Source of the DNA: an uncultured Gammaproteobacteria bacterium
Lineage (GTDB): Bacteria; Patescibacteriota; Patescibacteriia; UBA9570; XYC2-FULL-38-9
Length of the DNA stretch: 64,000 bases
Direction: 5' to 3'
Assembly (NCBI GenBank): GCA_964344485.1
Contig: CAYFNF010000003.1
Location: forward strand, 148,467-212,466
Below, piece by piece: positions 4,897-63,322 of the stretch. A program made the position numbers and the translations under genes. How positions within the stretch are numbered: position 1 is the first letter of the stretch; the number at the start of each line of letters is the position of its first letter. The notes beneath the pieces were generated by a model that was not told the origin of the DNA, ran no database searches, and saw nothing but the letters and a program-made list of their open reading frames with translations.

Positions 4897-4975
4897 GATG
4901 GTTCCGTCCTCCAATTAGTTTTGCCCGTTTCTATTGTACAACAAAAACAGTTTTTTTAGTATGTAGGGCTATAAA

Positions 4976-8551: not shown

Positions 8552-8612
8552 ATGTATTCTTTATTGATTAAGTGTATAGTATAACAGAAAGCAATGCTTA
8601 AAAAAAGCTGCG

Positions 8613-14469: not shown

Positions 14470-14488
14470 AGTTATTTTGCTAATGATG

Positions 14489-14573
14489 CGGTGGGAATGG
14501 GATTTGAACCCATGGTACATTTCTGCACACACGCACTCCAAGCGTGCGCCTTAAACCACTCGGCCATCCCACC
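14489..14573 (-). tRNA. tRNA-Ser (anticodon GGA)
   Basis: An 85-nt class II tRNA: GGTGGGA/TG/GCC-GAGTGGTTTAA-GGC/G/CACGC-TTGGAGT-GCGTG/long variable arm/ATGGG-TTCAAAT-CCCAT/TCCCACC/G. Confidence 0.9.
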
Positions 14574-14670
14574 ATATATTGTTTCAGTCCGCGTGCCAGG
14601 TCAGCCGACCAGAGCAAAGGACGCCTCTGTACAATAAAAGGCTTTGATTGTCCAGTCAAGCGCTGAGAAG

Positions 14671-18210: not shown

Positions 18211-18214
18211 ATAT

Positions 18215-21200: not shown

Positions 21201-23764
21201 AACTGCTCTTGCTCTGACATACGTGCTCGTCGCTCTGCATCATTCCATGCTCCTCGAATGTGCGTCCATATTACTGAGGGATCTTCTCCTTCTAGAAAGC
21301 GGAGCATCTCTGCAGGTGGAACAGAATCAGAACATGATGATATAATCGCATCCAGAAACTCTTGTCGAGCTCGTTTAGATTCATACGTCACTGCAGGGTA
21401 TAGATGAAGTATCGGTGCGGCTCGCTCAACTAAGTCATCGTATGATGCTATCCCGACTTCATGCAACAATCCAACTAACTCAGCTTGATGCAGAGAAGCA
21501 ACTTCAGCATGGGAAACCTGTAAAATACTATGCATCTGTTCTAGGCGTTCTTGAGGGGTGAGTGTTTGAAACCCTTCTCTCTCAGCTCGTGCTTGGATCG
21601 CACGAGTTACCACGTGCTCCCATAATACATAGATAGCATCAGCACCGCGGAGAGGTGCGTCAAATCCTGTTTCTTCTAAAAATAATTCGTTCGCTGAGGG
21701 TCTCGCTTCTATAGCTGGTTGTGGAAAGTGGCGTAACCACTGTTCACACTCCTGTTGTGAAAGTGTTGCAACAAAACCTTCAAGTTCCGCGGGTTGATAT
21801 CCTCTTGCAGATAACTTCATGGCGAGTTCAGCAACCAACTGTCCAAGTGTAGCGGCGTGCTCTGCTGAAAGTAATGCGCGACCCTCTGCGCTAGTAGTAT
21901 ACCGCTGTGCAAACCGCTGAGCGAGTTCCGGAAGTATACGATCAACAGTAGGAGAAGGAATGGTCCGTGGTTCTAAGGCTGGCATGGATTCTCCTGTGGC
22001 AATTGCTTGTCCTAACGCGGCAAGCGCTTCATTGTCATCACTATCAAACGCGTTTCGCGCTTCCATCATGAGAACTTGCCTGATGACTGCTACTCTTCCC
22101 TCTGGAGTTGAGACATCATCTGCTCTACGTAACTCTTCAGGTAGATAATGCTCTCTTGTGAGGTCGACTGTTAAGACACCTTGAGTGAGTTTGTCCAGCT
22201 GCATCTTCCAATTGCGTGCTTGGTCATGAAAAAATGGGGTACTGCTTTCACTGCAGAGAGTCATAAGCTCTTCAGGCTCTGCTGCACGCACTTGCTCTTT
22301 TACTGCATCATTATATTCATATCCGTCTTCTTTCGGCCCGTCGATATCTGCGTTAGAAATAAGCGTGTCTAGCGTGTCAGCGGACACACCATCAACTACT
22401 GCTTCTAGCTGTGCACGAAGATGCTGTACTTTACGTTGTAGTTCAATACGTGCTGCAAGCTTTGCTGCTTTTTCATGATCGTCCGGGTCTTCATCAGCAG
22501 CTGCTTGCGCTTGTGGAATTTGCTCACTGAGAAACCGTAGTGTTTCATCATATGCTTTGATTACTTCCGCGCGTTGCCGCTGCAGTCGCGTGTGCAGCGA
22601 TCGTTCAAATTTCTCTTCGTCATACGGCCCTTCCTCTACTTGTGCCCCAAAATCAAATTCTCTATCCATATATCGAGAGAGTTTATCCGGTGCTACCGAA
22701 GCCCTTGCCAAATACTCTGCTCTTCCTTCAGAGTAATGGTAACCGTAATATGCGGCATGTAGTGCATTGAGCACTTCTGCAAAATTGTGAAGCACAATCC
22801 TCTGTGCATAGTGTTTTCGCATTCGCTCCTGCTCTGCTGCGTGATGAAATAACGCGTGACGATCTAATACAAAAGCAGCAACACCAACTTCAACCGCATC
22901 ATGAAAACTCTCAGCTTGAGCGATCATGTCTTCAATATGGTCTAAACCCTCAGCACGGTACAATCGCGTGCCAGGTCGGCCGGGTGGTTCATCGATAAAT
23001 GCACGTTGCACTTCTGCTGGAACAACGGTCGGCTCTTTTTCAATATTCGGTAGCCAGGTGTCTGGGCTCTCCACTAACTCCACGAGCTCTCTATATCTAT
23101 CAGCGGATCGAGGGTGGGATGTTCCAATAGGCAGATCATTCGATAGGCTTAATAGAAACTGGATAGCTGCTAATCCCTCACGTGGATTATATCCAGCTTG
23201 TGCAAGTGCGATCAGTCCACCACGGTCAGCGTCGTATTCCGCATTCAAGCGGCGCTGCTTCTCATCGTGATCTGGATAGTCTTCATGAACGACGCCTTCT
23301 TCAGTATGCTGATCAATATGTGTACTTTCATGCGCTGCCACCATAGCGATCATGTCTTCGGTCATTGGTCGACCGTGTCGTTCGCACCAGCGCCCAAGTT
23401 CTCGCAGCAATCCCATGTATGTGTAGACGTGCGCGTGCCCGCTTACGACAAACGCATTAATTCCGGGTGAATCAATTGCAACCACATCAGTGGCGGGAAT
23501 CGATAACTGCCGCTCAATTCTTGCTTGAATGCGTGCCAGCATCTCTTTTCGCGGATCATCATCATCTAGAATTCCAAAACGCTGCTCCAATTGATAGAGC
23601 ATTCGTCGTAAATACGCTTCTGTTTGGTCTTGCCTACTTTGTGCTTCTGCAAGCCCAATTATTTCTACTCTTGGCGGTTCATCATGATCAACTTCAGGAA
23701 CTTCAGCAATTGAACGTGCTGGTCGTGGTAGTCTGGATTCTGATGCTGCAGCGTGTGAGTTCAT
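18215..23764 (-). CDS. Giant fusion protein (1849 aa): N-terminal M48-like zinc peptidase motifs and a C-terminal UbiB/ABC1-type atypical kinase domain
   Basis: The N-terminus has SPGINAFVVSG...MIAMVAAHESTHID (HExxH at 23318-23332) and EYDADRGGLIALAQAGYNP, the M48 pattern. The C-terminus has AASIKQVYRATREDGQRVIAKVRRPSI and FQADPHPGNWVV (about 18650-18676), the ABC1/UbiB signatures. A TATAAT box at 23770-23775 lies 5 nt upstream of the ATG. Confidence 0.8.
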   Translation of the reverse strand: MNSHAAASESRLPRPARSIAEVPEVDHDEPPRVEIIGLAEAQSRQDQTEAYLRRMLYQLEQRFGILDDDDPRKEMLARIQARIERQLSIPATDVVAIDSPGINAFVVSGHAHVYTYMGLLRELGRWCERHGRPMTEDMIAMVAAHESTHIDQHTEEGVVHEDYPDHDEKQRRLNAEYDADRGGLIALAQAGYNPREGLAAIQFLLSLSNDLPIGTSHPRSADRYRELVELVESPDTWLPNIEKEPTVVPAEVQRAFIDEPPGRPGTRLYRAEGLDHIEDMIAQAESFHDAVEVGVAAFVLDRHALFHHAAEQERMRKHYAQRIVLHNFAEVLNALHAAYYGYHYSEGRAEYLARASVAPDKLSRYMDREFDFGAQVEEGPYDEEKFERSLHTRLQRQRAEVIKAYDETLRFLSEQIPQAQAAADEDPDDHEKAAKLAARIELQRKVQHLRAQLEAVVDGVSADTLDTLISNADIDGPKEDGYEYNDAVKEQVRAAEPEELMTLCSESSTPFFHDQARNWKMQLDKLTQGVLTVDLTREHYLPEELRRADDVSTPEGRVAVIRQVLMMEARNAFDSDDNEALAALGQAIATGESMPALEPRTIPSPTVDRILPELAQRFAQRYTTSAEGRALLSAEHAATLGQLVAELAMKLSARGYQPAELEGFVATLSQQECEQWLRHFPQPAIEARPSANELFLEETGFDAPLRGADAIYVLWEHVVTRAIQARAEREGFQTLTPQERLEQMHSILQVSHAEVASLHQAELVGLLHEVGIASYDDLVERAAPILHLYPAVTYESKRARQEFLDAIISSCSDSVPPAEMLRFLEGEDPSVIWTHIRGAWNDAERRARMSEQEQLDFLEAALDVVPKWDSDCIDRREVEDYTERDKAAAIYSISLSIEYVRLYMVLNPGDSIVAPLKRVLRDGAINFDTSVSPHAADLQAAFDALTQPELEELARYCVEIEGKCKQAEDRSGEWGVDRIDRGVTYSIMQRALEAHGIIWQWGRWHVEPDERSEDESVAAITQFVPVSTRDTQLRDIFRVYHPGALPDEVVESGFVQRYHPIDRESHYSKSTSELIPRNIESDAAAYDPSAPSFTTIFRGDRKYSERYNALEFYIDYTQLPADPSIPAVGRVDRVQELIPEVTNYRDELLGAIETALLQERGLTTNGHEVVAPEGNEIQPDVAHELYTFYQRTIPLFADQAHQQLWSRRANSLFREHLATGEETFASELDRISELYPHASHVRGEALLQLGDTGVVRTPPQAREITRRLFDVQRRTTEDAELSQQSTVEKINSVLAYLNREDRKEFVLWTIGETDQPPRILRAFGGHNECSVEDMPDLLFAATPQEREETYIRLLFGENGVMDPREEEDEAIFQEFIDRSFERVFPPEAAEALGERGREAVRVIFTTALQEYGPFRRAKVYIEMMEVLRGQGDSTIGERLRGLLEAVGPVGIKAGQVLAEEKNADGTPLLPDDIAEELRKLQQNAKTFHRTASMHMMGAVGQFEEGHPHRLVSMDRRISAASIKQVYRATREDGQRVIAKVRRPSIAKHLGEDLRVLNRIMGNLREADFTVPDGLEDRIGRWLRDEANFQEEVRNHEAVAAAMEDYPQAAMARLFPVRIAEILDHSEEHILEEEIRGLSLRELTDVAMGRRTLADFQAKYDLQPDEMTAYEGLVGRLEDIHVQAFDALMYQIFVKGRFQADPHPGNWVVTPDGELGELDLGSAGEIAQTEIDSIKKIFLGMLAQFQNPALVQEGIRTFVPDVEAEQLERVAAVVSGTLETGEKYKEVLMIISEGGRAIHEGFEKFMKSLATGAYLARMEEPTGEPGKTRYRDISPMRLLPTVMGYGRITT

Positions 23765-23832
23765 GTATGATTATAACAAATAAAAATATCACAAAATAGT
23801 GAAAAAGTCAATGGAATCCTCCAATACAATCA

Positions 23833-26800
23833 TTATGCAGCAGCAGCTGGCGGCTCGGGTTGCTGACGATGTCGATGATGGCTGAACCATGCTATACCAA
23901 CTAAGAATATAATGACGATTCCAATGTTAATCATCACCAGCATGGTGGTGCTTGAGAGGCGATTCTTCTCTTCAATCACAAACCGCGTGATCTCGACCTG
24001 GTCAGATTTCACACCGTTTACTTCGGTTTGAGCAAAAACGACGTGATCTCCTTCACCGAGCAACTCTGCTGGAACCGTAATACTCCATTTACCGTTGGTG
24101 TCTACTTGCGCGACTTTTACTAATGGGTCTGAATAGATCGTCAGAATTGCCACAGCAGACATCTCTCTATACTGCTCAGCAATCTCTCCGGAGATAGTAA
24201 TCTCGTTCTTCTGTTCTTCGACTGTGCCGCCGAATAATCGTCTTGTTGCATCAATAATATCCCACTGCTGAACTTGCGTATAGGTGACGGTCCCATCATC
24301 TGATACCGTCGGTTCGATTGTAGTGCTATCTTGCTGGAACTCTATATCCGCAGTGTCTTGCAGCTGTCCAGTCTCGGTGGTCTGCAATTCTTCTCTTTGC
24401 TGCTTGGTCAGCGGCACGACTTCATCTGTATATGTATACGGATTCTCTGGCGGTTGTTTGACTCCATCCTCAGCATATTGTGTTTTTATTAGCTCTTCAA
24501 ATTTCTTTACGTTCACTACAACCACATCTGGAAGGCCGGTGTCGGTTGAACCCCCTTGGATTGGGTTGGTGCCGTACTTCACTTCATCACTATCTGATAC
24601 GCCGTCGTCATCAGAATCCGTGTCTGTTGGGTCAGAACCCAAATCCACTTCGTCGGAATCGCTTACCCCATCTTGATCTGAGTCCGCGTCTTCTGGATCA
24701 GTACCTAGCTCTTTCTCTTGTTCATCAGTCAGGCCGTCTCCGTCACTATCGGTCTCAGCTGGCTCGGTGTCAGTTCCTTGGTCAGGGCCTGGGTCTGTGC
24801 CCTGGCTCGGATCGCCGGTGTCAGTGTCTGGAGTATCAGTAGAAGGAGTTTCTTGAGGGGTGGCAGGGGCTACGGGTACGCTCACAGGAGCACTTACTGG
24901 TGCTGACACAGTAAAGGTGATTTCATTCGAAGTAGTCTCTGGATAGCCAGCTTGTTCAGAAGTGACAGCGTATGCAGTATGCGTGCCTGTAGATAGTGCA
25001 GATGGACGACATGCAACAGAGCTGGTCTCTCCACCACCAGTTGCAGTAGTATCGCAAATTCTCTGCCCATCAACATAGATTTGGGTATAAGCACCAGTAC
25101 GTGCTAATAGAGTAATCCATGGTCGGTTATATGATGTCTGCGCGTCCACCACAACTTGTTGCATCACTGCTGCAGGGTATGGGGTTGCGCGTACAATAGT
25201 CTGTGGAGTAAATACCTTTATCACAGTATCTTTTTTCGTATTCACGACCTTTACCTTGATCGCATTCGCTCCAATTGATAGTGCGGTGGTTGGTGTGCCC
25301 TGATATGAAATCACTGGACCAGTGTCGCTGGTAATAGCAGCAGTTCCGCTCAACGTACCGTTTACGAACAGTTGTACTGCAACATCATCCACTGAGATAT
25401 TTCCGATATAGACGTTACCGAAAAAGACCGGGTTCTTACTAAACGTCACATTCGAAGTCAATTTACTTCGCTCCTCTTTTGGATAGATATGAAATCGATC
25501 TGACACTACAGAAGATCCGACCGTATACCGGACACTGGATGTCTTTCCCACATTCCCTTTCTTATCTTCGATATTTGCCTCAGACGTATGTTTGTCGTAA
25601 TTCTTCTGGATCTGCGAATCTACCTCCCATTCTCCTTGCGCGTCTGTGGTGTCAGAACCGTCTAACTCACCTTCGGTATATACAGAAACTTCAGACTCTG
25701 TTTCAGCAGTTCCACTAAATGAAACGTATTGGTTGTAAACAATGTCATTTTGTTCTGGCTCTTCGATTACTGCTGCAGGCGGGCCGATTGAGAAACTCGC
25801 GGTCTTCTCCCACTCTGTGGAGCTGGATCTACTAGCGGTCTTCACTTTTGTGTACAGCTCCCAGAGTCCGCGCTTCAGTGTAAACTCTGTTTCTGCTGTG
25901 CCGTTACTGCCGACCTGTTCTTCATTGATCTTCTCTGCGCCGTTCTTTACGCGCACAAATTTAAACACCACCCACTGGCCAGTGGTTCCGGTTGCTGATA
26001 GCTCTACCTTCAGACGACCGGTATCCTCCTGTGCACTCAGTCGATGTACGCTCGAAGGATCACTTCGCAACTGCTCTCCATTTACTGTTAGTGCGGTGGG
26101 TAACAGTGATGACGCTGATCCTTCCTGTGTAGTGAATGAGTCTACTGAAGAGTTCGATGTATTACTACTCGCATCCGCGCTCACTACCTGATAGTAATAT
26201 GTAGTGCTGCTTAAAAGCCCTGATACAGTCACTGAATGGCTCTTTGTTAATCCACTAGTTGTTTGTGACTGCGGAATTTGCTCAGTCTTTCCATATCGTA
26301 CTTGTGATGTTGCTTTTTCATTCGTGGTCCAAGTAATAACCGCGGATGTAGAACGGCGAGTGACTTGAATATCTGAAATAGTGGGCGCCGAAAGGTCTCC
26401 AGTATCTGTGGTTGGGATTACTGACCCTGAAGTAAACTGAGATGTATTGTTTGATGAGTCTGTTAGCGTTGCAGTGACTTTATAGTTAGAAGCATATGAT
26501 TCTAGAGTGCTCTTGGGAACATCAACGCTCCATGTTAAACTCGTGACCGCTGCTTCTGTTATATAGACCTCGCCTTCATTATTCCGGTCTACAAAGACCT
26601 CCACTGTTCCGTCACTAGATGCAGTACCCGAGACAGTGTATGTATCTCCTTGCAAAGAAATTGCACTGATCACTGGGGTAGCAAGCCCCTCATTTGCTCC
26701 ATCAATTAGATTAATTCCACTTGAGGAGTTGTTATAGATAGAATTCTGTGTTACTAAATTGTATTTAGTTCCACTTTGAGAGATGTTCAATCCATCTGCA

Positions 26801-29202
26801 TAGGCGTTAGTAACTATGTTGCCCGGTCCAATGGTGTTGCTCTGACTAGTATTGGAGAGTGTTACTGCGTTCCACTGACACGGAAGCGGATCACCGTTTG
26901 TATCGATGCCGATCCTGTTTGATGAGAGAGTATTGTTTGAAGAGTCAGCAAATACCACACAGCGGTCTATATTGCCGATCACATTATCACTAATGGTGTT
27001 CCCAGTGCTGTTCGCTCGAATGATAATTCCATATACGTCATCCTGAGTAACAGGTTTCGTGATACCAATCCTATTACTGGAAATCACATTATTAATTCCA
27101 CCTTGCATTAGAATGTTCATGACATTGCCCGCAATAGTGTTGCTACCATTGATAGTGTTAGAACTGCCAGTGAGTTCAAGGCCGACAGCATTCTGCATCA
27201 CCGTTTGTTTACTCACTGCGAGGCCAATAGTATTCCCAGTGGCGGTGTTACTGTCTCCTTCAATCCATAACCCCACGCCGCTATGGTTAGAGATGAAATT
27301 CGTAGATATAGAATTACTATCGCTTTCAGTATCAATCACAAGACCGTTTGTGGTGTTTCCGATATTCGTATCACTTGCAGATACACCGATGTAGTTATCT
27401 GAGAGTGTGTTTGAATCAGAGGAATAGATAGCAATGCCCGATTCATTAAAACCAATGACATTAGATTGCGATGTTCCAATTCTACTATTTGATACTCCAG
27501 TAAATAGAATTCCGGTTCCAGTGTTCCCTCGATCGACTAGTGAAGCGTTGGTTCCAATATAATTACCCTCTATCGCTAGCTGAGAGATGTTTCCTGCGCT
27601 GCTATTTGCCTCAATACCATTTGATAGATTTCCAGAGATAGTATTCTTCGAAATCGATACCGCATTCGCGCTAATGGCAATAGAGATGCCATCCTCACCA
27701 TTCGAAACCGCTGCTCCACTTGAATCCAATCCAATAGTATTCTCAGTTATTGTGACATCGCTATCGTTTTCCAAGTAAATCCCATTTGCATCATTTCCTG
27801 AAATCACGTTATTCGGACCAATCGTTGTGTCTGCCCCACCAAAGATTCCGTCAGTATTTGGAATGGCTGTTCCAGAACTGTTTAATCCAATATAGTTCCC
27901 GGTGATTGTTCCAGTGCTCTGGTTCACTACTACCCCTGACTGGGTATTACCTGCAATAGTGTTGTTCGAAAGTGTATTCGCTCCTTGAAATGTTACACCG
28001 TTATTATTTTCAACTGCGCTCGTGCCGTTACTATCTACTCCGATATTATTCTTATTCACCGTGTTCCCAGATGTAGTTGCTTCTAAGAAGATACCTGACT
28101 TTGTATTGCCTGAAATTGTATTGCCAACGATCGTGTTATTGTTTCCGGTTACTCGAATACCTGAATCCCCATTAGTGGATTTTGTGGAACCGTCTGCAGT
28201 TATACCTATATAGTTCAAACCGATAGTACTGCTACTGCCTCGCAATTCAATTCCGTTGCTCGTATTTCCAGAGATGATATTGCGGAACGCTTGGTTGCTG
28301 CTATCTCCAATAGTGATGCCAGATACCGTCGCTGCTATATTAACTCCGTTTATCCCATTAGCGGTGATAGTGTTAGAACGCAATACATTAGTATTTGAAT
28401 TCTCGATAAAATTCACTCCCTGCTCAGAATTATTCGATATCGAGTTACCGGTTACCGTGGTGCTGGTTGCAGTGCCCCCAAAATAGATTCCGTTACGATT
28501 GCCTTTGATTGTGTTGCCTGAAATGGCATTATTACTCGATGCGACCTGAATGCCTTCACCCCCTGCAAAGCCTTCTATCGTGAAATTTGATATCTGACAA
28601 TTATCCGCTCGGATAGCTAGCCCATCATTATCTTGAGCTGCTGACAGCGCGCTCCCTTCAATGCCAACTCTGTTATCCCCATCGATTATAAGTTCATCAG
28701 TAATCGCGGGTAGCACACTTGAGGTTACTGCTATCTTTCCGTTTAATGAACTATTGAAACTGATCACGTCAGCACCAAGACTCGCGTTTGCATCGAGTAT
28801 AGCTTGCCGCAAAGATCCCGCACCGCTGTCATTCAAGTTTGACACAGTGAAATTAGCAGCATACGCGACTTTGATCTGATTCACCGGTAGCACTACAGAT
28901 GAAATTGCATACAAGAGAATAACCACTGCAACAAAGAACGCGGTGACTAACCCGCTGCGTAGTCGTATCTTTTTTCTGCGACTGTGATGCTCATGATACG
29001 AAAAACCCCAGATCCCTTTATGGTCTTGGTCATATAATGTACAGAATGTGTGCTGAGGTGGATAGAAAATGATATAGAAATATTCGTACAGCACGTATGC
29101 TATATATAGTGGAACGAGCGCAATGCCTAAAAGGACACGAATAATGAACGGTCGGGGTTTGGCTTGTACGTAGCACTCAATATGATTGATGGTTTTTTTC
29201 AT
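23833..29202 (-). CDS. Giant cell-surface protein (1789 aa): parallel beta-helix repeats, FN3, Ig-like regions, TSP3-type Ca-binding repeats and a C-terminal TM anchor
   Basis: The N-terminus has hydrophobic anchors. About 750 aa of (I/V)xGNxIxxN repeats (SGNTISGN, IAGNT...) match the NosD/CASH beta-helix type. The FN3-like stretch is APTISDIQVTRRSTSAVITWTTNEKATSQVRYG. The TSP3 repeats read DSDGDGLTDEQE, DSDQDGVSDSDE and DSDDDGVSDSDE. The C-terminal TM is MLVMINIGIVIIFLVGIAWF. Confidence 0.85.
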   Translation of the reverse strand: MKKTINHIECYVQAKPRPFIIRVLLGIALVPLYIAYVLYEYFYIIFYPPQHTFCTLYDQDHKGIWGFSYHEHHSRRKKIRLRSGLVTAFFVAVVILLYAISSVVLPVNQIKVAYAANFTVSNLNDSGAGSLRQAILDANASLGADVISFNSSLNGKIAVTSSVLPAITDELIIDGDNRVGIEGSALSAAQDNDGLAIRADNCQISNFTIEGFAGGEGIQVASSNNAISGNTIKGNRNGIYFGGTATSTTVTGNSISNNSEQGVNFIENSNTNVLRSNTITANGINGVNIAATVSGITIGDSSNQAFRNIISGNTSNGIELRGSSSTIGLNYIGITADGSTKSTNGDSGIRVTGNNNTIVGNTISGNTKSGIFLEATTSGNTVNKNNIGVDSNGTSAVENNNGVTFQGANTLSNNTIAGNTQSGVVVNQSTGTITGNYIGLNSSGTAIPNTDGIFGGADTTIGPNNVISGNDANGIYLENDSDVTITENTIGLDSSGAAVSNGEDGISIAISANAVSISKNTISGNLSNGIEANSSAGNISQLAIEGNYIGTNASLVDRGNTGTGILFTGVSNSRIGTSQSNVIGFNESGIAIYSSDSNTLSDNYIGVSASDTNIGNTTNGLVIDTESDSNSISTNFISNHSGVGLWIEGDSNTATGNTIGLAVSKQTVMQNAVGLELTGSSNTINGSNTIAGNVMNILMQGGINNVISSNRIGITKPVTQDDVYGIIIRANSTGNTISDNVIGNIDRCVVFADSSNNTLSSNRIGIDTNGDPLPCQWNAVTLSNTSQSNTIGPGNIVTNAYADGLNISQSGTKYNLVTQNSIYNNSSSGINLIDGANEGLATPVISAISLQGDTYTVSGTASSDGTVEVFVDRNNEGEVYITEAAVTSLTWSVDVPKSTLESYASNYKVTATLTDSSNNTSQFTSGSVIPTTDTGDLSAPTISDIQVTRRSTSAVITWTTNEKATSQVRYGKTEQIPQSQTTSGLTKSHSVTVSGLLSSTTYYYQVVSADASSNTSNSSVDSFTTQEGSASSLLPTALTVNGEQLRSDPSSVHRLSAQEDTGRLKVELSATGTTGQWVVFKFVRVKNGAEKINEEQVGSNGTAETEFTLKRGLWELYTKVKTASRSSSTEWEKTASFSIGPPAAVIEEPEQNDIVYNQYVSFSGTAETESEVSVYTEGELDGSDTTDAQGEWEVDSQIQKNYDKHTSEANIEDKKGNVGKTSSVRYTVGSSVVSDRFHIYPKEERSKLTSNVTFSKNPVFFGNVYIGNISVDDVAVQLFVNGTLSGTAAITSDTGPVISYQGTPTTALSIGANAIKVKVVNTKKDTVIKVFTPQTIVRATPYPAAVMQQVVVDAQTSYNRPWITLLARTGAYTQIYVDGQRICDTTATGGGETSSVACRPSALSTGTHTAYAVTSEQAGYPETTSNEITFTVSAPVSAPVSVPVAPATPQETPSTDTPDTDTGDPSQGTDPGPDQGTDTEPAETDSDGDGLTDEQEKELGTDPEDADSDQDGVSDSDEVDLGSDPTDTDSDDDGVSDSDEVKYGTNPIQGGSTDTGLPDVVVVNVKKFEELIKTQYAEDGVKQPPENPYTYTDEVVPLTKQQREELQTTETGQLQDTADIEFQQDSTTIEPTVSDDGTVTYTQVQQWDIIDATRRLFGGTVEEQKNEITISGEIAEQYREMSAVAILTIYSDPLVKVAQVDTNGKWSITVPAELLGEGDHVVFAQTEVNGVKSDQVEITRFVIEEKNRLSSTTMLVMINIGIVIIFLVGIAWFSHHRHRQQPEPPAAAA
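24582..24750 (-). repeat. Three thrombospondin type-3-like acidic calcium-binding repeats (coding)
   Basis: The DxDxDGxxDxxE motif is repeated three times in the translated sequence of the giant surface protein. Confidence 0.6.
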
Positions 29203-29317
29203 ATCTCAGGATAACAAAAAGGCCTTCTCCTCAATAAAAAGCCTTTATTTTTCTATTCAATGAATGCATATACTATTGTCTGGTTTTGTTTTTGTTTTTG
29301 AACTGACTACATATAGA

Positions 29318-29346
29318 ATTTTAACATTTTTAAGATTGTTTGTCAA
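29318..29346 (-). promoter_or_regulatory. Sigma70-like promoter TTGACA-17-TAAAAT for the giant surface-protein gene
   Basis: Minus-strand TTGACA at 29346-29341, a 17-nt spacer, and TAAAAT at 29323-29318. It lies about 110 nt upstream of the ATG at 29202. Confidence 0.45.
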
Positions 29347-29465
29347 ACAATAAAATCCGGGAAAAAGCGGGTTTTGCTGTCCGCAGGATACAAAAAAAGC
29401 CAGGGACCCACGATCGGGTGTGGCGTTAGCTCAGGAACGGGTGACGCGGTGCTGCGTCGGTCCGG

Positions 29466-29759
29466 CTACGCGCTGGGCGCGTCGCTGGCCAGGGCCAGCA
29501 GGCCGTCCGGCATGACCGCGGCGAGCGTACCGAGGTGGCCGACGCCGTTGGCGCCGCTCGAGCCGTTCCCGGGCTCGTTGGACTGCGCGTCCTGGTCGGC
29601 GGTACCGCCGTCGCTGCTGCCGTCGTCGTCCGGGCTCTTCCTCTGGCTGCTGCCGGGCAGGCCGTCCGCCTCGCCACGTCGGGCGAGCTGGGCCGTGAGG
29701 TTCTGTGAGCCACCGACTCCGCGGTGCAGGGGGCAGGCGTTCCGTCGTCTCTGCGTCAT
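29466..29759 (-). CDS. Small G/S/D-rich, probably disordered protein (97 aa) (high-GC island C)
   Basis: GAGGAG lies 5 nt upstream of the ATG. Third codon positions in this frame are almost all G/C, which picks this frame over four overlapping alternatives. Line 29521-29580 has 45/60 G+C. No recognisable domain. Confidence 0.5.
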   Translation of the reverse strand: MTQRRRNACPLHRGVGGSQNLTAQLARRGEADGLPGSSQRKSPDDDGSSDGGTADQDAQSNEPGNGSSGANGVGHLGTLAAVMPDGLLALASDAPSA

Positions 29760-29793
29760 CTCTTCTCCTCGTCAGTTCGACGTTCGCGCAGGC

Positions 29794-29875
29794 GTTGGGC
29801 AGGAGCCCAACTAAAAGCATCGAGTTGCCTCGAGCTTAACGCAAGAACTCTACACGAAAGTCTAATATTTGTCAA
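29794..29875 (-). promoter_or_regulatory. Promoter TTGACA-17-TAGAGT plus a 5'-UTR hairpin for the island C gene
   Basis: Minus-strand TTGACA at 29875-29870 and TAGAGT at 29852-29847. A perfect 7-bp hairpin GTTGGGC-TCCT-GCCCAAC lies at 29811-29794, within the ~85-nt leader. Confidence 0.45.
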
Positions 29876-29883
29876 GAGTAGAC

Positions 29884-29908
29884 TAGAAAACAGGGTTATT
29901 CGCCCTGT
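29884..29908 (-). terminator. Intrinsic terminator after ppsA
   Basis: ACAGGG-CGAATAA-CCCTGT followed by TTTTC on the minus strand. Confidence 0.6.
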
Positions 29909-29929
29909 TGCTAGTTTTTCTCCTTGTTT

Positions 29930-32374
29930 TTAGCTCTTATTCTTCAACTCTTTTTCATGCTGCGCAATCATCACCGAAGTCTTTACAACTGTGTCAGGAT
30001 TCAATGAAATAGAATCAATTCCTTTGTCGACTAAGAACTCTGCGATCTCTGGAAAGTCTGATGGTGCTTGTCCACAGATCCCGATCTTCTTCCCTTCTTC
30101 ATGAGCATAGCGAATCACTCGTTCAAGGATAATCGTAACCGCAAGATTCCGTTCGTCATACAGATGAGCAACTAATCCAGAGTCACGGTCCAACCCAAGC
30201 AGCAGTTGTGTCAGATCATTGGTCCCGATAGAGTATCCATCAAATATCTTTAAGAACTCTTTTGCGAGAATCACATTCGCTGGTATCTCACACATCATGT
30301 AGATCTCTAATCCATTCTCTCCTTGTTTCAGTCCGTTCTCTGCCATGATCTGTACTACCTTCTTCCCTTCCTCTGGTGTACGACAGAACGGGATCATAGC
30401 CTTCATATTCGTGAGCCCCATCTCATTGCGTACTCGTTTAAACGCCTCGCACTCTAACGCAAACGCTTCTTTATACTTCTCGGAGTAGTACCGTGACGCA
30501 CCACGCCATCCGATCATGGGGTTTTCCTCATGTGGCTCAAATTGCTTTCCTCCAATTAAGTTCGCGTACTCATTGGACTTGAAATCAGACATGCGCACGA
30601 TCACATCATGCGGATAAAACGCTGCACAGATCTTTCCCACTCCTTCTGCGAGCTTCTCAACAAAGTATTCGGTCTTGTCTTTATACCCAGCGGTTAATTC
30701 CTCTATCTGTTCCTTTACTTCACTGTCTTCAAGCTCATTAAAACGCAGCAATGCTAATGGATGTATCTTGATATAGTCCAAAATGATCAGTTCTTCACGT
30801 GCGAGTCCTACTCCCTGATTCGGAATTTGCGCAAAGTCGAATACGCGCGACGGGTCCGCTACAATCATCATCATCTGTGTTTCGGGCAGTTCCATACCAG
30901 AGATGTCAGTTTCATCTATACGAAACGGTAATTCGCCTTCATAGATAAACCCTCTCTCACCTTCTGCACACGAGACCGTCACGGTATCACCAGAATGCAA
31001 CGTGGTCGTAGCTTCTCCGGTGCCGACAATAGCCGGAATGCCGAGCTCACGAGAGACAATAGCAGCATGGGATGTTCTGCCTCCGGAGTTAGTTACAATC
31101 CCAGAGGCGATCTTCATAATCGGCTCCCAATCAGGGTCTGTTATTTCAGTCACAAGTATCTGTCCTTTTTGAAATCGGTGGATCTCAGACGCGTTTTTAA
31201 TGACATTTACTTCACCAGTACCGATCTTTGCGCCAACTGCGACTCCTTCCAACAACACCTTGCCCTTCTCTTCTAATACATACTCTCTGATCACATTCTT
31301 GTCTGTTTGTGACTGCACGGTCTCTGGACGCGCTTGCACAATGTATAACTCTCCGGTCCCACCATCTTTGGCCCATTCAATATCCATGGCTTTTTCATAG
31401 TGCTCCTCAATCTGCATGGCCCAGTGTGCGAGTGTAAGAATCTCCTCATTTGTCAGAACGAACTGTTGTTGCTCTTCTTCTGGAACCTGCACTTCTTTGA
31501 CCGCGCCTCCTAATGAGACCTCTGCTTCAGCTGCATAGACCATCTTATACTGCTTGGACCCAAGTTTTTTCTCAATAATCGGAGAGTTGGTAAATGCGAT
31601 CTTGCCCTGCTTCTCTACAGCGCCCTGCTTGAGCGCGGGCTTGAATACAATGAACTCATCTGGGTCAACCTTTCCTTGAACCACCATCTCGCCTAGCCCC
31701 CACGTAGCGTTGATCACCACCGCGTTCTCAAATCCAGACTCGGGGTCAATAGAGAACATCACTCCAGAGCATGCAGTGTCTGATCGCACCATCTTCTGGA
31801 TACCAACCGAAAGTGCAATCGTAAAGTGATCAAAGTTCTTGTCTTCACGGTATGAGATCGCGCGGTTAGTAAACAGTGACGCAATACAGCGCCTAGTGGC
31901 TTCTAGTACTTCGTGTGCTCCTTGTACATGTAAAAAAGTCTCTTGCTGTCCAGCGAATGACGCGTCCGGCAAGTCCTCAGCAGTTGCAGAGGACCGAACC
32001 GCGACATCCACATACTCTTCTCCATCTTTTTTGCTCAGTTCAGCATACGCTTGCTCCACTGCCTGCTCTAACTCATTCGGAAAATCTGCCTTCAAAATCG
32101 TCTCGCGTACTTTATGCCCTCGTTCCGTCAGGTTCTTCATGTCTGTAGTGTCTAAATCCGAAAGAATCTCCTTAATAGTATCTCGAATACCGGCTTGATC
32201 AATAAAGAAATTATACGCGTGCGCGGTCAGAGCAAATCCATTTGGAACTCGAATCCCTTTTTCAGCCAAGTTTTGATACATTTCGCCGAGCGAAGCGTTC
32301 TTACCGCCGACATACGGCACGTCCTCGATGCTTAAGTCGTTGAACCAAAGTATATATTCTTGGTCTTTGCTCAT
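29930..32374 (-). CDS. ppsA: Phosphoenolpyruvate synthase (pyruvate, water dikinase)
   Basis: The N-terminus has an ATP-grasp fold. The phosphohistidine motif is GGRTSHAAIVSRELGIPA and the C-terminal PEP-utilising motif is SIGTNDLTQ. The start is set at MSKDQEYILWF (32374) because the ORF-track start at 32413 lies inside the pyk terminator hairpin. Confidence 0.9.
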   Translation of the reverse strand: MSKDQEYILWFNDLSIEDVPYVGGKNASLGEMYQNLAEKGIRVPNGFALTAHAYNFFIDQAGIRDTIKEILSDLDTTDMKNLTERGHKVRETILKADFPNELEQAVEQAYAELSKKDGEEYVDVAVRSSATAEDLPDASFAGQQETFLHVQGAHEVLEATRRCIASLFTNRAISYREDKNFDHFTIALSVGIQKMVRSDTACSGVMFSIDPESGFENAVVINATWGLGEMVVQGKVDPDEFIVFKPALKQGAVEKQGKIAFTNSPIIEKKLGSKQYKMVYAAEAEVSLGGAVKEVQVPEEEQQQFVLTNEEILTLAHWAMQIEEHYEKAMDIEWAKDGGTGELYIVQARPETVQSQTDKNVIREYVLEEKGKVLLEGVAVGAKIGTGEVNVIKNASEIHRFQKGQILVTEITDPDWEPIMKIASGIVTNSGGRTSHAAIVSRELGIPAIVGTGEATTTLHSGDTVTVSCAEGERGFIYEGELPFRIDETDISGMELPETQMMMIVADPSRVFDFAQIPNQGVGLAREELIILDYIKIHPLALLRFNELEDSEVKEQIEELTAGYKDKTEYFVEKLAEGVGKICAAFYPHDVIVRMSDFKSNEYANLIGGKQFEPHEENPMIGWRGASRYYSEKYKEAFALECEAFKRVRNEMGLTNMKAMIPFCRTPEEGKKVVQIMAENGLKQGENGLEIYMMCEIPANVILAKEFLKIFDGYSIGTNDLTQLLLGLDRDSGLVAHLYDERNLAVTIILERVIRYAHEEGKKIGICGQAPSDFPEIAEFLVDKGIDSISLNPDTVVKTSVMIAQHEKELKNKS

Positions 32375-32391
32375 AGGGGTGTGTTTATATG

Positions 32392-32413
32392 AAAAATGTG
32401 GCGGTTGCCACAT
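32392..32413 (-). terminator. Intrinsic terminator after pyk
   Basis: ATGTGGC-AACC-GCCACAT followed by TTTTT on the minus strand. Confidence 0.6.
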
Positions 32414-32447: not shown

Positions 32448-33866
32448 TTAAATTTCGACTGCTTCTGCCAGTGCCAGGTCCCGTTTAATGAATCCGCTGA
32501 CAGTAACAATATAATCGCCTTTTTTTGCCATCTTTGCTTTCACGATCTCTCGGCGGGCTTTTTGGATAAAGTCTTTTCGGTCTTTAGGTCTGTTGATTTT
32601 GATTCCTTTACACCCCCAGATAAGTGCGAGCTGTCGAAGCACTTGATCGTCATCCGTGAACACCACAATCTCTGCTTTTTGCGGCCGCAGTTGTGAAATC
32701 ATGGTAGCGGTATGTCCGGTTCTACTGAGAATAGCGATTGCTTTTGCGCCGATAGCTTCAGCTAGATGCACAGTAGAGTGCGCGACTCCAATGGCTTTCG
32801 TTTTCTTGCGTCTGTCAAAGATATCATCAGAAAGATCATCAAATGCAGACTGTTCGATCTTGCGTGCAATACTGGACATGGTGCGTACTGCTTGTACCGG
32901 GAACTTCCCAGTCGCGGATTCTGCGGAGAGCATGATGGCATCGGTATGGTCGATAATTGCGTTTGCCACATCAGCTGCTTCAGCACGGGTCGGTCGAGGG
33001 TTTCTGGTCATAGACTCTAGCATCTGCGTTGCTACAATTACTGGCTTTCCTTCGGTAAGTGCTTTTGCCACCATCTTTTTCTGCAGTAGTGGAATCTCTG
33101 CTGGACCGAGCTCTACACCTAAGTCACCGCGCGCTACCATAATACCGTCCACTGCTTTTAATATCTTATCATAGTTCTTCACTGCTTCCGCGCGTTCGAT
33201 TTTTGCAATGATCTTAATTGGCCGTGACTTTGGAATGAGCTTTCGCAGCTGCTTAATGTCTTTGTCGTCTTTGACAAAAGAGAGTGCAACGTAGTCCACT
33301 CCTTGCTTAATGCCAAACTTGAGATCTTTCTTGTCTTTTGCAGTAATCACATCTGCCTCAATAGTAACACCTGGAGCGTTCACTCCCTTATGGGAGTACA
33401 CAGTCTCGCCTTGTACCACGCGGCAGAAGATCTTTTTATCCGTAATCTTCTGAATCTTCAAATCAATAATACCGTCTTGGATATAGATGTGTCCGCCTGG
33501 CTTTACAAACTGATAGAGCTCTTCGTATTGGATTGGTATTGGAATACGACCTAGCTCCTCGTGCTGCTCAAACTCTTGTTGAGAGAGAAGGATAACGTAG
33601 TCTCCATTGCGGATTTCAATACCTTCGGGCGGTACATCTCCAGTGCGAATACGTGGCCCTTGCAGGTCTTGAAGTAGTGCAATCGGTTCTTTCTCTTCTT
33701 TTGCTGCAGTACGTATGGTTTTTATTAGTTTGGCGTGGTCTTCATAGCTCCCATGAGAGAAATTCAAGCGCGCGACGTTCATTCCAGCCGAGATCATTTT
33801 GCGCAACTGTGTTTTCGAATCAGAGGATGGACCGATGGTACAGACAATTTTTGTATTCTTCTTCAT
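32448..33866 (-). CDS. pyk: Pyruvate kinase
   Basis: KIVCTIGPSS, NFSHGS, MVARGDLGVE and ATQMLESM. 472 aa. An extended -10 box TGATATAAT ends 6 nt upstream of the ATG (TATAAT at 33878-33873). Confidence 0.95.
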   Translation of the reverse strand: MKKNTKIVCTIGPSSDSKTQLRKMISAGMNVARLNFSHGSYEDHAKLIKTIRTAAKEEKEPIALLQDLQGPRIRTGDVPPEGIEIRNGDYVILLSQQEFEQHEELGRIPIPIQYEELYQFVKPGGHIYIQDGIIDLKIQKITDKKIFCRVVQGETVYSHKGVNAPGVTIEADVITAKDKKDLKFGIKQGVDYVALSFVKDDKDIKQLRKLIPKSRPIKIIAKIERAEAVKNYDKILKAVDGIMVARGDLGVELGPAEIPLLQKKMVAKALTEGKPVIVATQMLESMTRNPRPTRAEAADVANAIIDHTDAIMLSAESATGKFPVQAVRTMSSIARKIEQSAFDDLSDDIFDRRKKTKAIGVAHSTVHLAEAIGAKAIAILSRTGHTATMISQLRPQKAEIVVFTDDDQVLRQLALIWGCKGIKINRPKDRKDFIQKARREIVKAKMAKKGDYIVTVSGFIKRDLALAEAVEI

Positions 33867-33878
33867 GTACGTATTATA

Positions 33879-34313
33879 TCATATTGAACAATAAAAAAAA
33901 GCTGCTGTTGCAGGTACTGACCAGGCTGCGGCTACGCGGGTGAGTGCGAGTCTGTCACGTCGCAGAACTCGTTCCGGTACCTCCAGGGCAGTGAGCTGCC
34001 CCGCGGTGTAGCGCTGCCAGATGATGAGCTGATCCAGGTGCGTTCCCGGGATGCTGCTGAGCGCAGCGTTGGTGCGGCGCACAGCCGTGAGCACGGTCAT
34101 GGGAGGTGCACCGTTGGCAGATGCCTCGGTTCCGCTGGCCACGTAGATGCGGCCCTCTCCACGTACCTCGTCCAGCTCCTCGCTGGTGAAGCCCCCGCCC
34201 AGTGAATCGGGCTTGAAGACCTGGAGGCTCCCGATCTCCACCACCAGCCTGAGCGCGGTCTCGCTGGCGTACAGCACGTGCGTCGGCGTTCCAGAAGTTG
34301 TGTTGCAGTTCAT
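33879..34313 (-). CDS. Unknown soluble protein (144 aa), possibly 3'-truncated or fused (high-GC island D)
   Basis: The ATG at 34313 has GGAG 8 nt upstream. A candidate promoter TTGCAT-17-TATACC lies at 34396-34368. High GC ends near 33901, and the last ~7 codons (..FFYCSI) read through a T8 run into AT-rich host DNA, stopping inside the pyk -10 region. Line 34141-34200 has 41/60 G+C. Confidence 0.5.
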   Translation of the reverse strand: MNCNTTSGTPTHVLYASETALRLVVEIGSLQVFKPDSLGGGFTSEELDEVRGEGRIYVASGTEASANGAPPMTVLTAVRRTNAALSSIPGTHLDQLIIWQRYTAGQLTALEVPERVLRRDRLALTRVAAAWSVPATAAFFYCSI

Positions 34314-34442
34314 ACGTTCGCTCCAGCACTGTCCTTTCAATGCAGCTATGGGTGTTCCCACCAACAGGGTATACCATAGCAGGAATAAATATGCAAACCA
34401 CTCTCATACGTCACACTATATAAGACATGATATGAAAACTGC

Positions 34443-34471
34443 TTGACTGTAACACCAAAACTACCTATTAT
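34443..34471 (+). promoter_or_regulatory. Promoter TTGACT-17-TATTAT for the island E gene, divergent from the island D promoter
   Basis: TTGACT at 34443-34448, a 17-nt spacer, and TATTAT at 34466-34471. Confidence 0.45.
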
Positions 34472-34523
34472 CAGGGACGGAATAGTCTTTGTCGCCGTAT
34501 GAACCTGTTGGAATGGAGGTGTT

Positions 34524-34856
34524 TTGAGCGCCGCAGCCCACGACCGAGACTTCCCGCGTACGCGAGGTGAACCCGTCGAGACCGATGACGATGTCCGTGT
34601 CGCACTGCAACGACTCGAAGCCATCCCCGCACTGGAAGGTGCAGTGGCAACGATCGTGGCCTGGTGCTTCGTGGCCTTCGCGGTCAAGGAAGGATGGTGG
34701 CACGCCATCCTGATCTTCACCCTCGTGGGATGCGTGATCGCGTCTCTGGCGTGTATCGTCCACCGGGCCGACCTGAACCGGAAGTACATCCGGTCGTTCC
34801 TGTTCTTCTTCCTGGTCTGGCCACTGGTGATGACGGTCAAGGTCAAGAGCTTCTGA
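34524..34856 (+). CDS. Small polytopic membrane protein (110 aa, 2-3 TM) (high-GC island E)
   Basis: TTG start with GGAGG 4 nt upstream. The N-terminus is acidic and is followed by the hydrophobic segments AVATIVAWCFVAFAV, AILIFTLVGCVIASLACIV and FLFFFLVWPLVM. Line 34621-34680 has 39/60 G+C. Confidence 0.5.
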   Translation: MSAAAHDRDFPRTRGEPVETDDDVRVALQRLEAIPALEGAVATIVAWCFVAFAVKEGWWHAILIFTLVGCVIASLACIVHRADLNRKYIRSFLFFFLVWPLVMTVKVKSF

Positions 34857-34926
34857 TCACGGTACGCGGTTTTTTTATACTATTGCATTTTTTCGCGTTA
34901 ATCGCGTTTATTTCTATAAACAGCAC

Positions 34927-34954
34927 TTGATTTTTTCATTTCTCTCTGTATACT
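34927..34954 (+). promoter_or_regulatory. Promoter TTGATT-16-TATACT for the island F gene
   Basis: TTGATT at 34927-34932 and TATACT at 34949-34954. Confidence 0.4.
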
Positions 34955-34989
34955 AGGGGCGCACCTTTTTACTGCGAGGGGAGATAGGA

Positions 34990-35340
34990 GTGCACCCAGA
35001 GGAGCGGGAAGCCGCTCAGGCCCAATTCAGCATCGAATCATCGCGACAGCATGCCATCATGGCGATCGCGGTGCTGGGAAGCATCGCCTTTCACGGCGTC
35101 TTCCTGCCGGTTGTCTGGATCTTCTTCGGAATGTTCATTGCAGTTGGAGCAGACATCGCCCTGTGCATTCTGGCCGCCCTGGTGTGCCAGAACTGCGTCA
35201 AGGTCGTCCGCATACCTCGTCATGCGGGCATACTGCTCACGCTGTCGTACTTCCCGGAGTTCCTGGTCTGGGCTGCAATGTGGCCGATGATGGTCACTGC
35301 TGCGAAGATCCACTTCAGTCGAATGTCACCTCCCCCTTGA
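34990..35340 (+). CDS. Small polytopic membrane protein (116 aa, 3-4 TM) (high-GC island F)
   Basis: GTG start preceded by GGGGAGATAGGA. Hydrophobic segments are AIMAIAVLGSIAFHGVFLPVVWIFFGMFIAV, ADIALCILAALV and LVWAAMWPMMV. Line 35161-35220 has 37/60 G+C. Confidence 0.5.
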   Translation: MHPEEREAAQAQFSIESSRQHAIMAIAVLGSIAFHGVFLPVVWIFFGMFIAVGADIALCILAALVCQNCVKVVRIPRHAGILLTLSYFPEFLVWAAMWPMMVTAAKIHFSRMSPPP

Positions 35341-35371
35341 GGCGACACGCAGCAACTTTTTCTACAACAAC

Positions 35372-35394
35372 GCCCGGTATAACACCGGGCTTTT
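35372..35394 (+). terminator. Intrinsic terminator after the island F gene
   Basis: GCCCGGT-ATAAC-ACCGGGC followed by TTTT. Confidence 0.65.
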
Positions 35395-35421
35395 ATAGTT
35401 GTGTTTTACTGCTATTCAGCG

Positions 35422-35985
35422 TTACGCTGTCGCACGTTCTACATACTCTCCAGTCTCTGTATTTATACGTACTTTATCGCCTTTATTAATGAAGAGCGGA
35501 ACGGAGAGTTCGTAGTCTGTCTCTACTTTTACCTTTTTTGTGACGTTTGATGCTGAGTCTCCTTTAATGCCTGGAGGTGATTGCACCACTTCCAGAACTA
35601 CTTTTGGAGGAAGAGAGATGCTCACTGGCTTCTCTTCATAGTACATCACGTCTACATCTTCGCCTTCTTTCACGAAGTTCACGTTGTCGCCTACTGCATC
35701 GTTATCAAGAGTGAACTGTTCATACGTTTCATTATCCATGAACGTTAAGCCGTCCTCGTCCTTGTATTGATAGTTAGCTTTCTTGTTCTGTAGATGCGCT
35801 GGTTCAATAGAGTCACTCTGCTGGAATGTATTGTCCAATACTTGTCCGGAGATCAGATTCTTCATCTTTACACGCAACACTGCAGCGCTTCGTGCTTGCT
35901 TTGAGTGCTCAGCTTTGACTACTTGGTACGGTGCTCCCTCATACGAAATAACCTTCCCTACTTTAATGTCGGATATTGATAGCAT
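35422..35985 (-). CDS. efp: Elongation factor P
   Basis: 187 aa. The N-terminal KOW-like region is DIKVGKVISYEGAPYQVVKAEH. OB domains follow, ending ...GDKVRINTETGEYVERA. Confidence 0.9.
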   Translation of the reverse strand: MLSISDIKVGKVISYEGAPYQVVKAEHSKQARSAAVLRVKMKNLISGQVLDNTFQQSDSIEPAHLQNKKANYQYKDEDGLTFMDNETYEQFTLDNDAVGDNVNFVKEGEDVDVMYYEEKPVSISLPPKVVLEVVQSPPGIKGDSASNVTKKVKVETDYELSVPLFINKGDKVRINTETGEYVERATA

Positions 35986-63317: not shown

Positions 63318-63322
63318 ATGTT

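Follow-up and report, generated by a model that had tools for sequence, protein, structure and literature searches.

The junction between ppsA and a giant surface-protein gene in this 64,000-nt stretch of DNA (the window) carries a short segment of very high GC content, which raises the questions of whether the segment is a gene, in which frame it is read and where it came from. A two-change-point likelihood fit defines a sharply bounded block of 410 bp, with 72% GC inside and 37% outside and with the edges supported (2-lnL) at 29397-29404 and 29803-29812. The block is the strongest compositional outlier of the 64-kb window; its GC content peaks at 74-77% (74-75% in 200-nt windows), against 45.7% for the window as a whole (sd 5.8% among 150-nt windows) and 46% for the host genome. 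An earlier reading of this DNA, made from the sequence only, had described about 420 bp of very high GC, and the fit bears this out. The DNA of the block is compositionally foreign:

29399-29808, no strand: foreign high-GC block, from the change-point fit and composition profiles; identical in L001.

The adjacent ppsA is 71% identical to that of Candidatus Kerfeldbacteria MAGs (GTDB species set), and its closest relative in a large protein collection is 76% identical. The host is a Kerfeldbacteria-like bacterium of the candidate phyla radiation (CPR). No species- or genus-level sister genome was present in the databases searched, and comparisons with relatives are at family level.

So abrupt a compositional step would suit an assembly chimera or contaminant, in which the assembler joined a high-GC fragment of a different organism into the CPR contig. 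The exact 97-aa protein encoded by the block occurs on one other record, ENA contig ERZ930068 k127_69466, which matches window positions 28959-31381 with 99.9% identity over its 2,423 nt; the block is 100% identical and the two differences fall beyond it, at the end of the contig. The chimera would fit with the gene being recorded on this single short contig and not called in the NCBI record, where the host's ppsA is present and the 97-aa protein has no entry. However, the same two junctions are found in two assemblies (both of metagenomes and possibly not independent), and an internal insertion requires two chimeric joins. These joins, moreover, yield a terminator made of a foreign hairpin and a host T-run, as well as a host promoter that faces the ORF, and the genome holds further intact GC-rich genes. 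We therefore consider a chimera very unlikely.

Several ORFs are open on both strands of the block, as the sequence-only reading had pointed out and as the composition predicts. The frame that it favored is present as described:

29466-29759, minus strand: ORF of 97 codons, ATG to TAG; the product is rich in Gly, Ala, Ser and Asp, has a mass of 9.6 kDa and a pI of 5.1, is predicted to be disordered and is a strict orphan.

An ATG-initiated ORF of at least 97 aa arises in 29% of block shuffles, so neither openness nor ORF length is evidence, and we dropped length as a sign of coding because it is at chance level at the GC content of the block. Codon positions are more telling. GC content at the first, second and third positions of the minus-strand ORF is 72%, 59% and 91% (chi-square p = 2.5e-6), and the near-total third-position G/C that had been claimed is thereby confirmed. 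Third-position GC (GC3) is 0.78, 0.97 and 0.97 in successive thirds of the ORF and 0.93 in the 61 codons for residues other than Gly, Asp and Ser, which ruled out a (GRC)n repeat artefact of the Gly/Asp/Ser core as the source of the periodicity. Because the three-base periodicity (GC3>GC1>GC2) is not explained by repeats, a coding origin of the 97-aa frame is indicated. Codon usage departs from that of the host, with a synonymous-codon fraction (host mean) of 0.25 for the mini-gene versus 0.39 for ppsA; AGC accounts for 8 of the 11 Ser codons.

The phase of this periodicity admits two frames, the 97-aa frame and a codon-aligned antisense ORF of 146 aa on the plus strand (29374-29814), which shares the GC-rich third positions and might itself be the real gene. 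The plus-strand ORF is the longest in the block, would not need a Shine-Dalgarno sequence (SD) in this host, and is bracketed by a weak plus-strand promoter-like site at 29159-29186 and a terminator-like hairpin at 29889-29909. It also has a weak PADLOC match (PDC-M06A, E = 0.009, 14 bits), although this match is no better than chance once the number of tests is considered. Its GC1 is lower than its GC2 (62% vs 72%), which is atypical for genes, whereas in the minus frame GC1 exceeds GC2, as is usual. With 6.2% Cys+Trp and 38% Pro/Arg/Ser, the product has the composition expected when a high-GC gene is read in antisense; furthermore, the ORF starts with TTG in the AT-rich flank and finds no homologues in metagenomes, Pfam, NCBIfam or PHROGs. 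We regard the plus-strand ORF as a highly improbable gene. The minus frame is the best supported, by the phase of the periodicity, its GC1>GC2 and the odd composition of the plus-frame product.

The minus-strand ORF lies within an ordered series of putative expression signals, given here in the direction of transcription:

29889-29909, minus strand: hairpin with a 7-bp stem (dG −9.1 kcal/mol, z −2.3), the probable ppsA terminator.
29847-29875, minus strand: sigma-70-type promoter-like site TTGACA-17-TAGAGT, 10/12 match, in DNA of host composition.
29815-29837, minus strand: first leader hairpin, followed by UUUUAG (dG −10.9, z −2.9); terminator-like according to the scan.
29794-29811, minus strand: perfect 7-bp leader hairpin GTTGGGC-TCCT-GCCCAAC (dG −13.1, z −4.2).
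29765-29770, minus strand: SD GAGGAG, 5 nt before the ATG, as read from the sequence.
29392-29424, minus strand: intrinsic-terminator-like element, a bulged 8-bp GC-rich hairpin (29399-29424) with a T7 run (29392-29398); dG −11.4 kcal/mol.
29318-29346, minus strand: promoter of the giant surface-protein gene that follows (TTGACA-17-TAAAAT and a TG), 11/12 match.

The ppsA stop codon is at 29930-29932 and the first of these hairpins comes after it. The sequence-only reading had placed the promoter directly after a ppsA terminator; the hairpin exists, but its U-tail is weak on the ppsA strand and the scan flagged the opposite (plus) strand only. The promoter proposed in that reading was recovered by our scan, which gave three sites in a 900-nt region versus 0.6 expected. 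Sites of the form TTGAC[AT]-N16-18-TAnnnT number 10 in the window, 8-9 of them upstream of genes and in the right orientation, and the promoter upstream of the mini-gene reads as one of host type. Of the two leader hairpins, the first lies immediately outside the foreign block, where the DNA has host composition. The second, which had been picked out by eye as perfect, is at the 5′ edge of the block, and none of 200 shuffles was equally stable. The SD stands where it had been reported, with its 5-nt spacing, and an in-frame TGA at 29772-29774 closes the frame 15 nt upstream of the ORF. At the other end, the GC boundary falls exactly between the 3′ hairpin and the T7 run. Since a better promoter of its own precedes the giant surface-protein gene, the mini-gene would form a separate transcription unit, and it is probably transcribed as a monocistronic RNA of ~450 nt.

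A promoter and a terminator that bracket ~450 nt, together with stable terminal hairpins, are also what would be expected of a structured non-coding RNA gene read from the promoter at 29875, GC-rich as structured RNAs are in AT-richer genomes, and the relative L002 has a GC-rich block at the same position. The strong three-base periodicity is, in contrast, typical of coding DNA, and the L002 block has no sequence similarity to that of the window. At E<=1, Rfam models matched neither strand of 28800-30400 nor the L002 block, and at gathering level they identified only five tRNAs in the whole window; ARAGORN found no tmRNA. On both strands, the predicted fold of the 456-nt region is no more stable than that of dinucleotide shuffles (z −0.54 and −0.05). 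RNase P, tmRNA, 6S RNA and a riboswitch leader were rejected as candidates on these grounds, and we give the RNA-gene explanation very little credence.

The other genes of the window place the composition and the SD of the mini-gene in context. GC3 lies between 0.34 and 0.52 in 43 of the 49 window ORFs (host median 44%), and six ORFs are outliers:

97-aa mini-gene, GC3 0.91.
Phosphoribosyltransferase (PRTase) gene, GC3 0.80.
110-aa ORF, GC3 0.77.
116-aa ORF, GC3 0.72.
GCS2-like gene, GC3 0.70.
161-aa ORF, GC3 0.67.

The 161-, 110- and 116-aa ORFs make up a 1.5-kb insert between the EF-P and PK genes, which are just 60-130 nt apart in the relatives L083 and L084. In this insert, AT-rich spacers set apart three GC-rich blocks; every block shows a periodicity of its own and none belongs to a family. 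No relatedness was found among the GC-rich orphans of the window and the relatives. An SD-core 5-mer is located upstream of only 1 of 43 host genes, compared with 3 of the 6 GC3 outliers (Fisher p = 0.004). A TAnn[AT]T box ends 4-10 nt before the start codon in 12 of the 43 host genes, which suggests that the host may use leaderless mRNAs; a literature search on SD or leaderless usage in Patescibacteria returned nothing. As SDs are rare in host genes and frequent among the GC-rich outliers, that of the mini-gene looks imported and most likely arrived with the foreign DNA. The idea that a foreign segment had been given host expression signals thus stands for the promoter and fails for the SD, which is atypical of this host. 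The GCS2-like gene is intact (322 aa, with a Pfam match) and preceded by the SD AAGGAGG, so SD-led genes can be maintained in the host genome.

We compared the ppsA locus with that of six family-level relatives, in which ppsA is 67-76% identical. The block is absent from all six; this presence/absence check had been suggested with sister genomes and was carried out at family level. The upstream order S6-SSB-S18-EF-P-PK-ppsA is kept in relatives, and the sequence after ppsA varies:

L084 and L085: tRNA-Ser(GGA), 58-70 nt downstream.
L082: 5′ half of tRNA-Ser(GGA), at the contig end; a probable third case.
L003: AT-rich spacer.
L083: unrelated orphan gene.
L002: unrelated GC-rich block of ~340 bp with a GGAGG-led 42-aa ORF (GC3 84%, p about 0.01) and a T8 end.

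In the window, tRNA-Ser(GGA) is found on the same strand at 14488-14573, 15.3 kb beyond ppsA, and the intervening DNA holds the mini-gene and three giant genes (14671-29202). The ppsA junction can be read as a synteny breakpoint at which, we infer, DNA was added in this lineage. Around the block we detected no att-like repeats, terminal inverted repeats (TIRs), mobility genes or tRNA fragments, and the only direct repeat flanking it was a T-rich 27-mer with 70% identity. There is no second copy of the block in the window or in the locus of any relative, and a single weak inverted repeat lies within it. With no TIRs, no further copies and just this one internal repeat, the block does not look like a MITE or an IS-derived element.

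The L002 block, unrelated in sequence and situated at the same spot after ppsA, could mean that such mini-genes are native, that is, fast-evolving lineage-specific genes from a Kerfeldbacteria accessory pool (for example, its own phages or plasmids), with no distant high-GC donor. The outlier PRTase gene would agree with this, as its closest homologues are in other Patescibacteria and WS2 (53-55% identity) and have elevated GC3 there too; the same homologues make it uninformative as a pointer to a donor phylum. The mini-genes, however, share no sequence relationship, no CPR genome or metagenome searched contains a homologue of the 97-aa protein, and a GC3 of 91% is far from everything else in the genome. 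A native origin is in our view improbable.

The searches for relatives of the mini-gene were extensive. A word-indexed search of 5.8 billion clusters and an exhaustive HMMER search of 1.84 billion representatives each matched the 97-aa protein to itself alone. Scanning DNA with back-translated queries produced no match in JGI metagenome contigs, for the minus or the plus frame, or in IMG/VR; tblastn against phage and plasmid collections was likewise negative, and blastn against plasmids and phages returned just 30-44-nt chance matches to Ralstonia and Streptomyces-phage DNA. Three frames were compared with Pfam, NCBIfam, PHROGs, PADLOC and PDB sequences without any credible result (PADLOC has no match for the 97-aa protein). 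That the product belongs to no recognized family is borne out by these self-matches and empty profile libraries. A better match in another frame, which had been named as an outcome that would count against the minus-strand ORF, did not appear, as no frame gave any match. We also considered whether the Gly/Ser/Asp core is a piece of the acidic linker of the neighboring adhesin and rejected this (BLASTP E >= 0.95).

The same searches bear on the suggestion that the mini-gene is a fragment of a larger actinobacterial gene, since no homologue of either frame turned up among about 15 billion proteins or in DNA from metagenomes, viruses, phages and plasmids. An internal fragment is disfavored by the in-frame stop and SD upstream and by the stop and hairpin downstream; with its own SD, the in-frame stop 15 nt before it and the 3′ hairpin, the ORF looks like a complete small gene. 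An actinobacterial origin is unsupported by any of the tests, and the composition fits many high-GC phyla. Neither a preference for AGC among Ser codons nor a U-tailed terminator is known to be especially actinobacterial, and the sample is too small to weigh.

The predicted product agrees with the description given in the sequence-only reading. The first 16 residues carry a charge of +4, and the center is an acidic, low-complexity Gly/Ser/Asp core; the GRAVY value is −0.72. The protein has no signal peptide or transmembrane segment, the most hydrophobic 15-residue window scoring 1.6. A single-sequence AlphaFold model was poor (pLDDT 57, pTM 0.15) and contained one helix, at residues 19-31, in line with the disorder proposed earlier. 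The 97-aa product is thus predicted to be intrinsically disordered. In this respect it resembles small disordered bacterial proteins, being 97 aa long, hydrophilic by GRAVY and rich in Gly, Ser, Asp and Ala, with a single short helix and a low-confidence AlphaFold model. It differs in that it can be assigned to no family and in that no conserved motif was found.

Taken together, we tentatively favor the view that a complete small gene was acquired recently, by horizontal transfer, from a high-GC, SD-using source. A foreign piece of 410 bp, from a high-GC bacterium that uses SDs or from its mobile element, would have entered the T-rich spacer downstream of ppsA and would have brought one complete gene, with its 5′ hairpin, SD, 97-codon ORF and GC-rich 3′ hairpin. 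The insertion would have placed this gene behind a host-type sigma-70 promoter, and the foreign 3′ hairpin, abutting the host T7 run, would together with it form an intrinsic terminator. The gene would then yield a disordered 9.6-kDa protein with a basic N terminus, one short helix and an acidic Gly/Ser/Asp core. The acquisition would be recent because GC3 is essentially unameliorated (91% versus the host median of 44%). The data show directly that the block is compositionally foreign, that it has a coding periodicity with a defined frame, that its product is an orphan, that relatives lack it and that the sequence signals are present. We infer the horizontal origin, the transcription and the recency of the mini-gene; as no donor or homologue was found, it is composition and signals that argue for the horizontal origin.

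It is less likely, although a serious competitor, that the block is dead cargo, i.e., DNA that was coding in its donor and is here a recently captured scrap, whose ORF is intact because high-GC DNA seldom contains stops. The flanking promoter and T-run would then be pre-existing host intergenic signals that are there by chance. The frequency of ORFs of this length among shuffles is consistent with such a scrap, as are the unameliorated composition, which would have left no time for decay, and a disordered orphan product. The block edges lie just inside host T-rich tracts (UUUUAG / block / UUUUUUUG), positions that fit an insertion into an existing hairpin-plus-U-run terminator, and translation in the host is mostly SD-independent. 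On the other hand, promoter, leader, SD at 5 nt, ATG, ORF, hairpin and U7 are all present and in the correct order, and the genome contains other GC-rich genes led by an SD that are plainly intact and look functional. Whether acquired whole or not, the mini-gene possibly yields a protein useful to the organism, a point on which we lean slightly to the negative; otherwise it would be neutral cargo.

A recently acquired mini-gene would share several features with acquired ORFans and genomic islets, namely a sharp composition shift, alien codons, small size, no homologues and absence from relatives; like islets, it is at a synteny breakpoint that adjoins a tRNA gene in relatives. Classical acquired ORFans are usually AT-richer than their host, whereas the mini-gene is about 27 points GC-richer. 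It also differs from genomic islets in having no integrase or att scar beside it and no mobile-element context, and in having an SD, a translation signal that the host rarely uses. As in phage morons, a single small ORF of deviant composition with its own promoter and terminator is placed between two unrelated genes. Unlike morons, its neighbors are ppsA/PK and giant surface proteins, and there is no prophage context and no PHROG, phage or IMG/VR match.

Taken alone, the mini-gene is one more compositionally alien, strain-specific orphan gene or islet, and as such fairly ordinary. It is nevertheless a clean case of unameliorated foreign DNA in a CPR genome, and its foreign origin can be read from translation signals too, as within this window SDs are present in alien genes and lacking in host genes. 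The presence of an SD could be a general marker of recent transfers into SD-poor lineages, and a mini-gene left uncalled in the NCBI record shows how such islets escape annotation. CPR bacteria are believed to take up DNA from their hosts, which are mostly unknown. It is tempting to speculate, as a long shot, that the SD-led GC-rich mini-genes are DNA captured from the high-GC host cell on which this episymbiont lives; the captured set would comprise, with the same slim chance, the mini-gene itself, the three ORFs of the EF-P/PK insert and possibly the L002 block. If this were true, captured mini-genes would document a continuing flow of DNA from host to symbiont into intergenic hotspots, and they would serve as a genomic fingerprint that might reveal the lineage of the Kerfeldbacteria host. 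The finding opens no long-standing question otherwise; a donor in the same community, if found, would bear on the hosts of these CPR bacteria.

The 97-aa protein encoded by the mini-gene that follows ppsA (29466-29759) has a metagenome contig in ENA as its sole record and has no entry in the NCBI record holding the ppsA of this genome; the mini-gene appears to have been missed by gene calling in the source genome. A T-rich direct repeat of 27 nt, present at 29273-29299 and 29905-29931 with a spacing of 632 nt, encloses the mini-gene unit together with the promoter of the adjacent giant adhesin gene. The two copies are imperfect (70%) and probably represent a chance low-complexity match rather than a target-site duplication.

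A GC-rich block of about 340 bp was also observed directly after ppsA in the Kerfeldbacteria MAG contig PFGC01000057 (locus L002, 12443-12790), in a position matching that in the window. It reaches 70% GC within a contig of 44% GC and contains a TTGACA-N17-TAGTCT site, a T8 run and a 42-aa ORF behind GGAGG (GC3 84%). The block gave no match in an Rfam search and shows no similarity to the GC-rich block of the window, to which it is unrelated. As a parallel case, L002 hints that the position after ppsA is a recurrent insertion site.

The wider neighborhood of ppsA was compared with that of relatives, in which tRNA-Ser(GGA) lies 58-70 nt after ppsA (region 8430-8733 in locus L084, 8089-8233 in L085). 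In the window the same tRNA gene is found 15.3 kb downstream of ppsA on the same strand (region 14488-29930), and the interval holds the mini-gene and three giant genes (1179, 1849 and 1789 aa) with host-like GC3. Because tRNA-Ser(GGA) adjoins ppsA in relatives and is so distant here, the cluster of giant surface-protein genes looks as if it was added in this lineage at a site next to a tRNA gene. The ppsA gene itself (29930-32413) is most similar to Kerfeldbacteria homologues (67-76%), and its next-closest relatives (59-63%) are scattered over DPANN archaea (Woesearchaeota, Nanoarchaeota), other CPR groups, cyanobacteria and Desulfobacterota, a distribution that suggests transfer of ppsA across domains.

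Another insert of foreign appearance, roughly 1.5 kb long (33879-35400), separates the genes for pyruvate kinase (32448-33866) and EF-P (35422-35985); in the relatives L083 and L084 the gap between these two genes is 60-130 nt. AT-rich spacers split the insert into three GC-rich blocks, each with its own codon periodicity and one small orphan ORF:

about 33900-34300, GC-rich block 1
about 34500-34850, GC-rich block 2
about 34950-35350, GC-rich block 3
minus strand, orphan ORF of 161 aa
plus strand, orphan ORF of 110 aa, hydrophobic and membrane-like on reading
plus strand, orphan ORF of 116 aa, hydrophobic and membrane-like on reading

The three ORFs have GC3 values of 0.67-0.77, and none belongs to a family in Pfam, NCBIfam or PHROG. 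The 110-aa ORF carries a GGAGG Shine-Dalgarno (SD) sequence and a promoter-like TTGACT-N17-TATTAT site at 34443, and gave a weak PycTM match in PADLOC (E = 0.005).

Two further GC3 outliers belong to recognizable families:

4390-4914, phosphoribosyltransferase, GC3 0.80
6264-7232, GCS2-like glutamate-cysteine ligase, GC3 0.70, with a canonical AAGGAGG SD

The phosphoribosyltransferase has its closest homologues (53-55%) in other members of the Patescibacteria and in candidate division WS2; one of these, in locus L086, is likewise elevated in GC3 (0.73, where the locus as a whole has a GC of 0.49). At the 3' end of the window, 63700-64000 has 60-76% GC; its minus strand encodes a low-complexity Ala/Gly-rich stretch (AGAGAAGAGAGAG...) followed by a C-terminal part that is hydrophobic and ends near 63320, in an ORF that extends beyond the window edge.

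Among all window ORFs, an SD-core 5-mer precedes only 1 of the 43 host genes, so that an SD is almost never present. Many of them (12 of the 43 by a simple test) have a TATAAT-like box that ends 5-9 nt before the start codon, frequently with an upstream TG; examples are the starts of the genes at 18215-23764, 32448-33866, 46981-47523, 50143-51105, 54036-54725 and 57029-59071. A literature search found no paper on leaderless mRNAs in this CPR lineage. The rarity of SD sequences in host genes, together with TATAAT-like boxes so close to start codons, suggests that leaderless mRNAs are common in this lineage.
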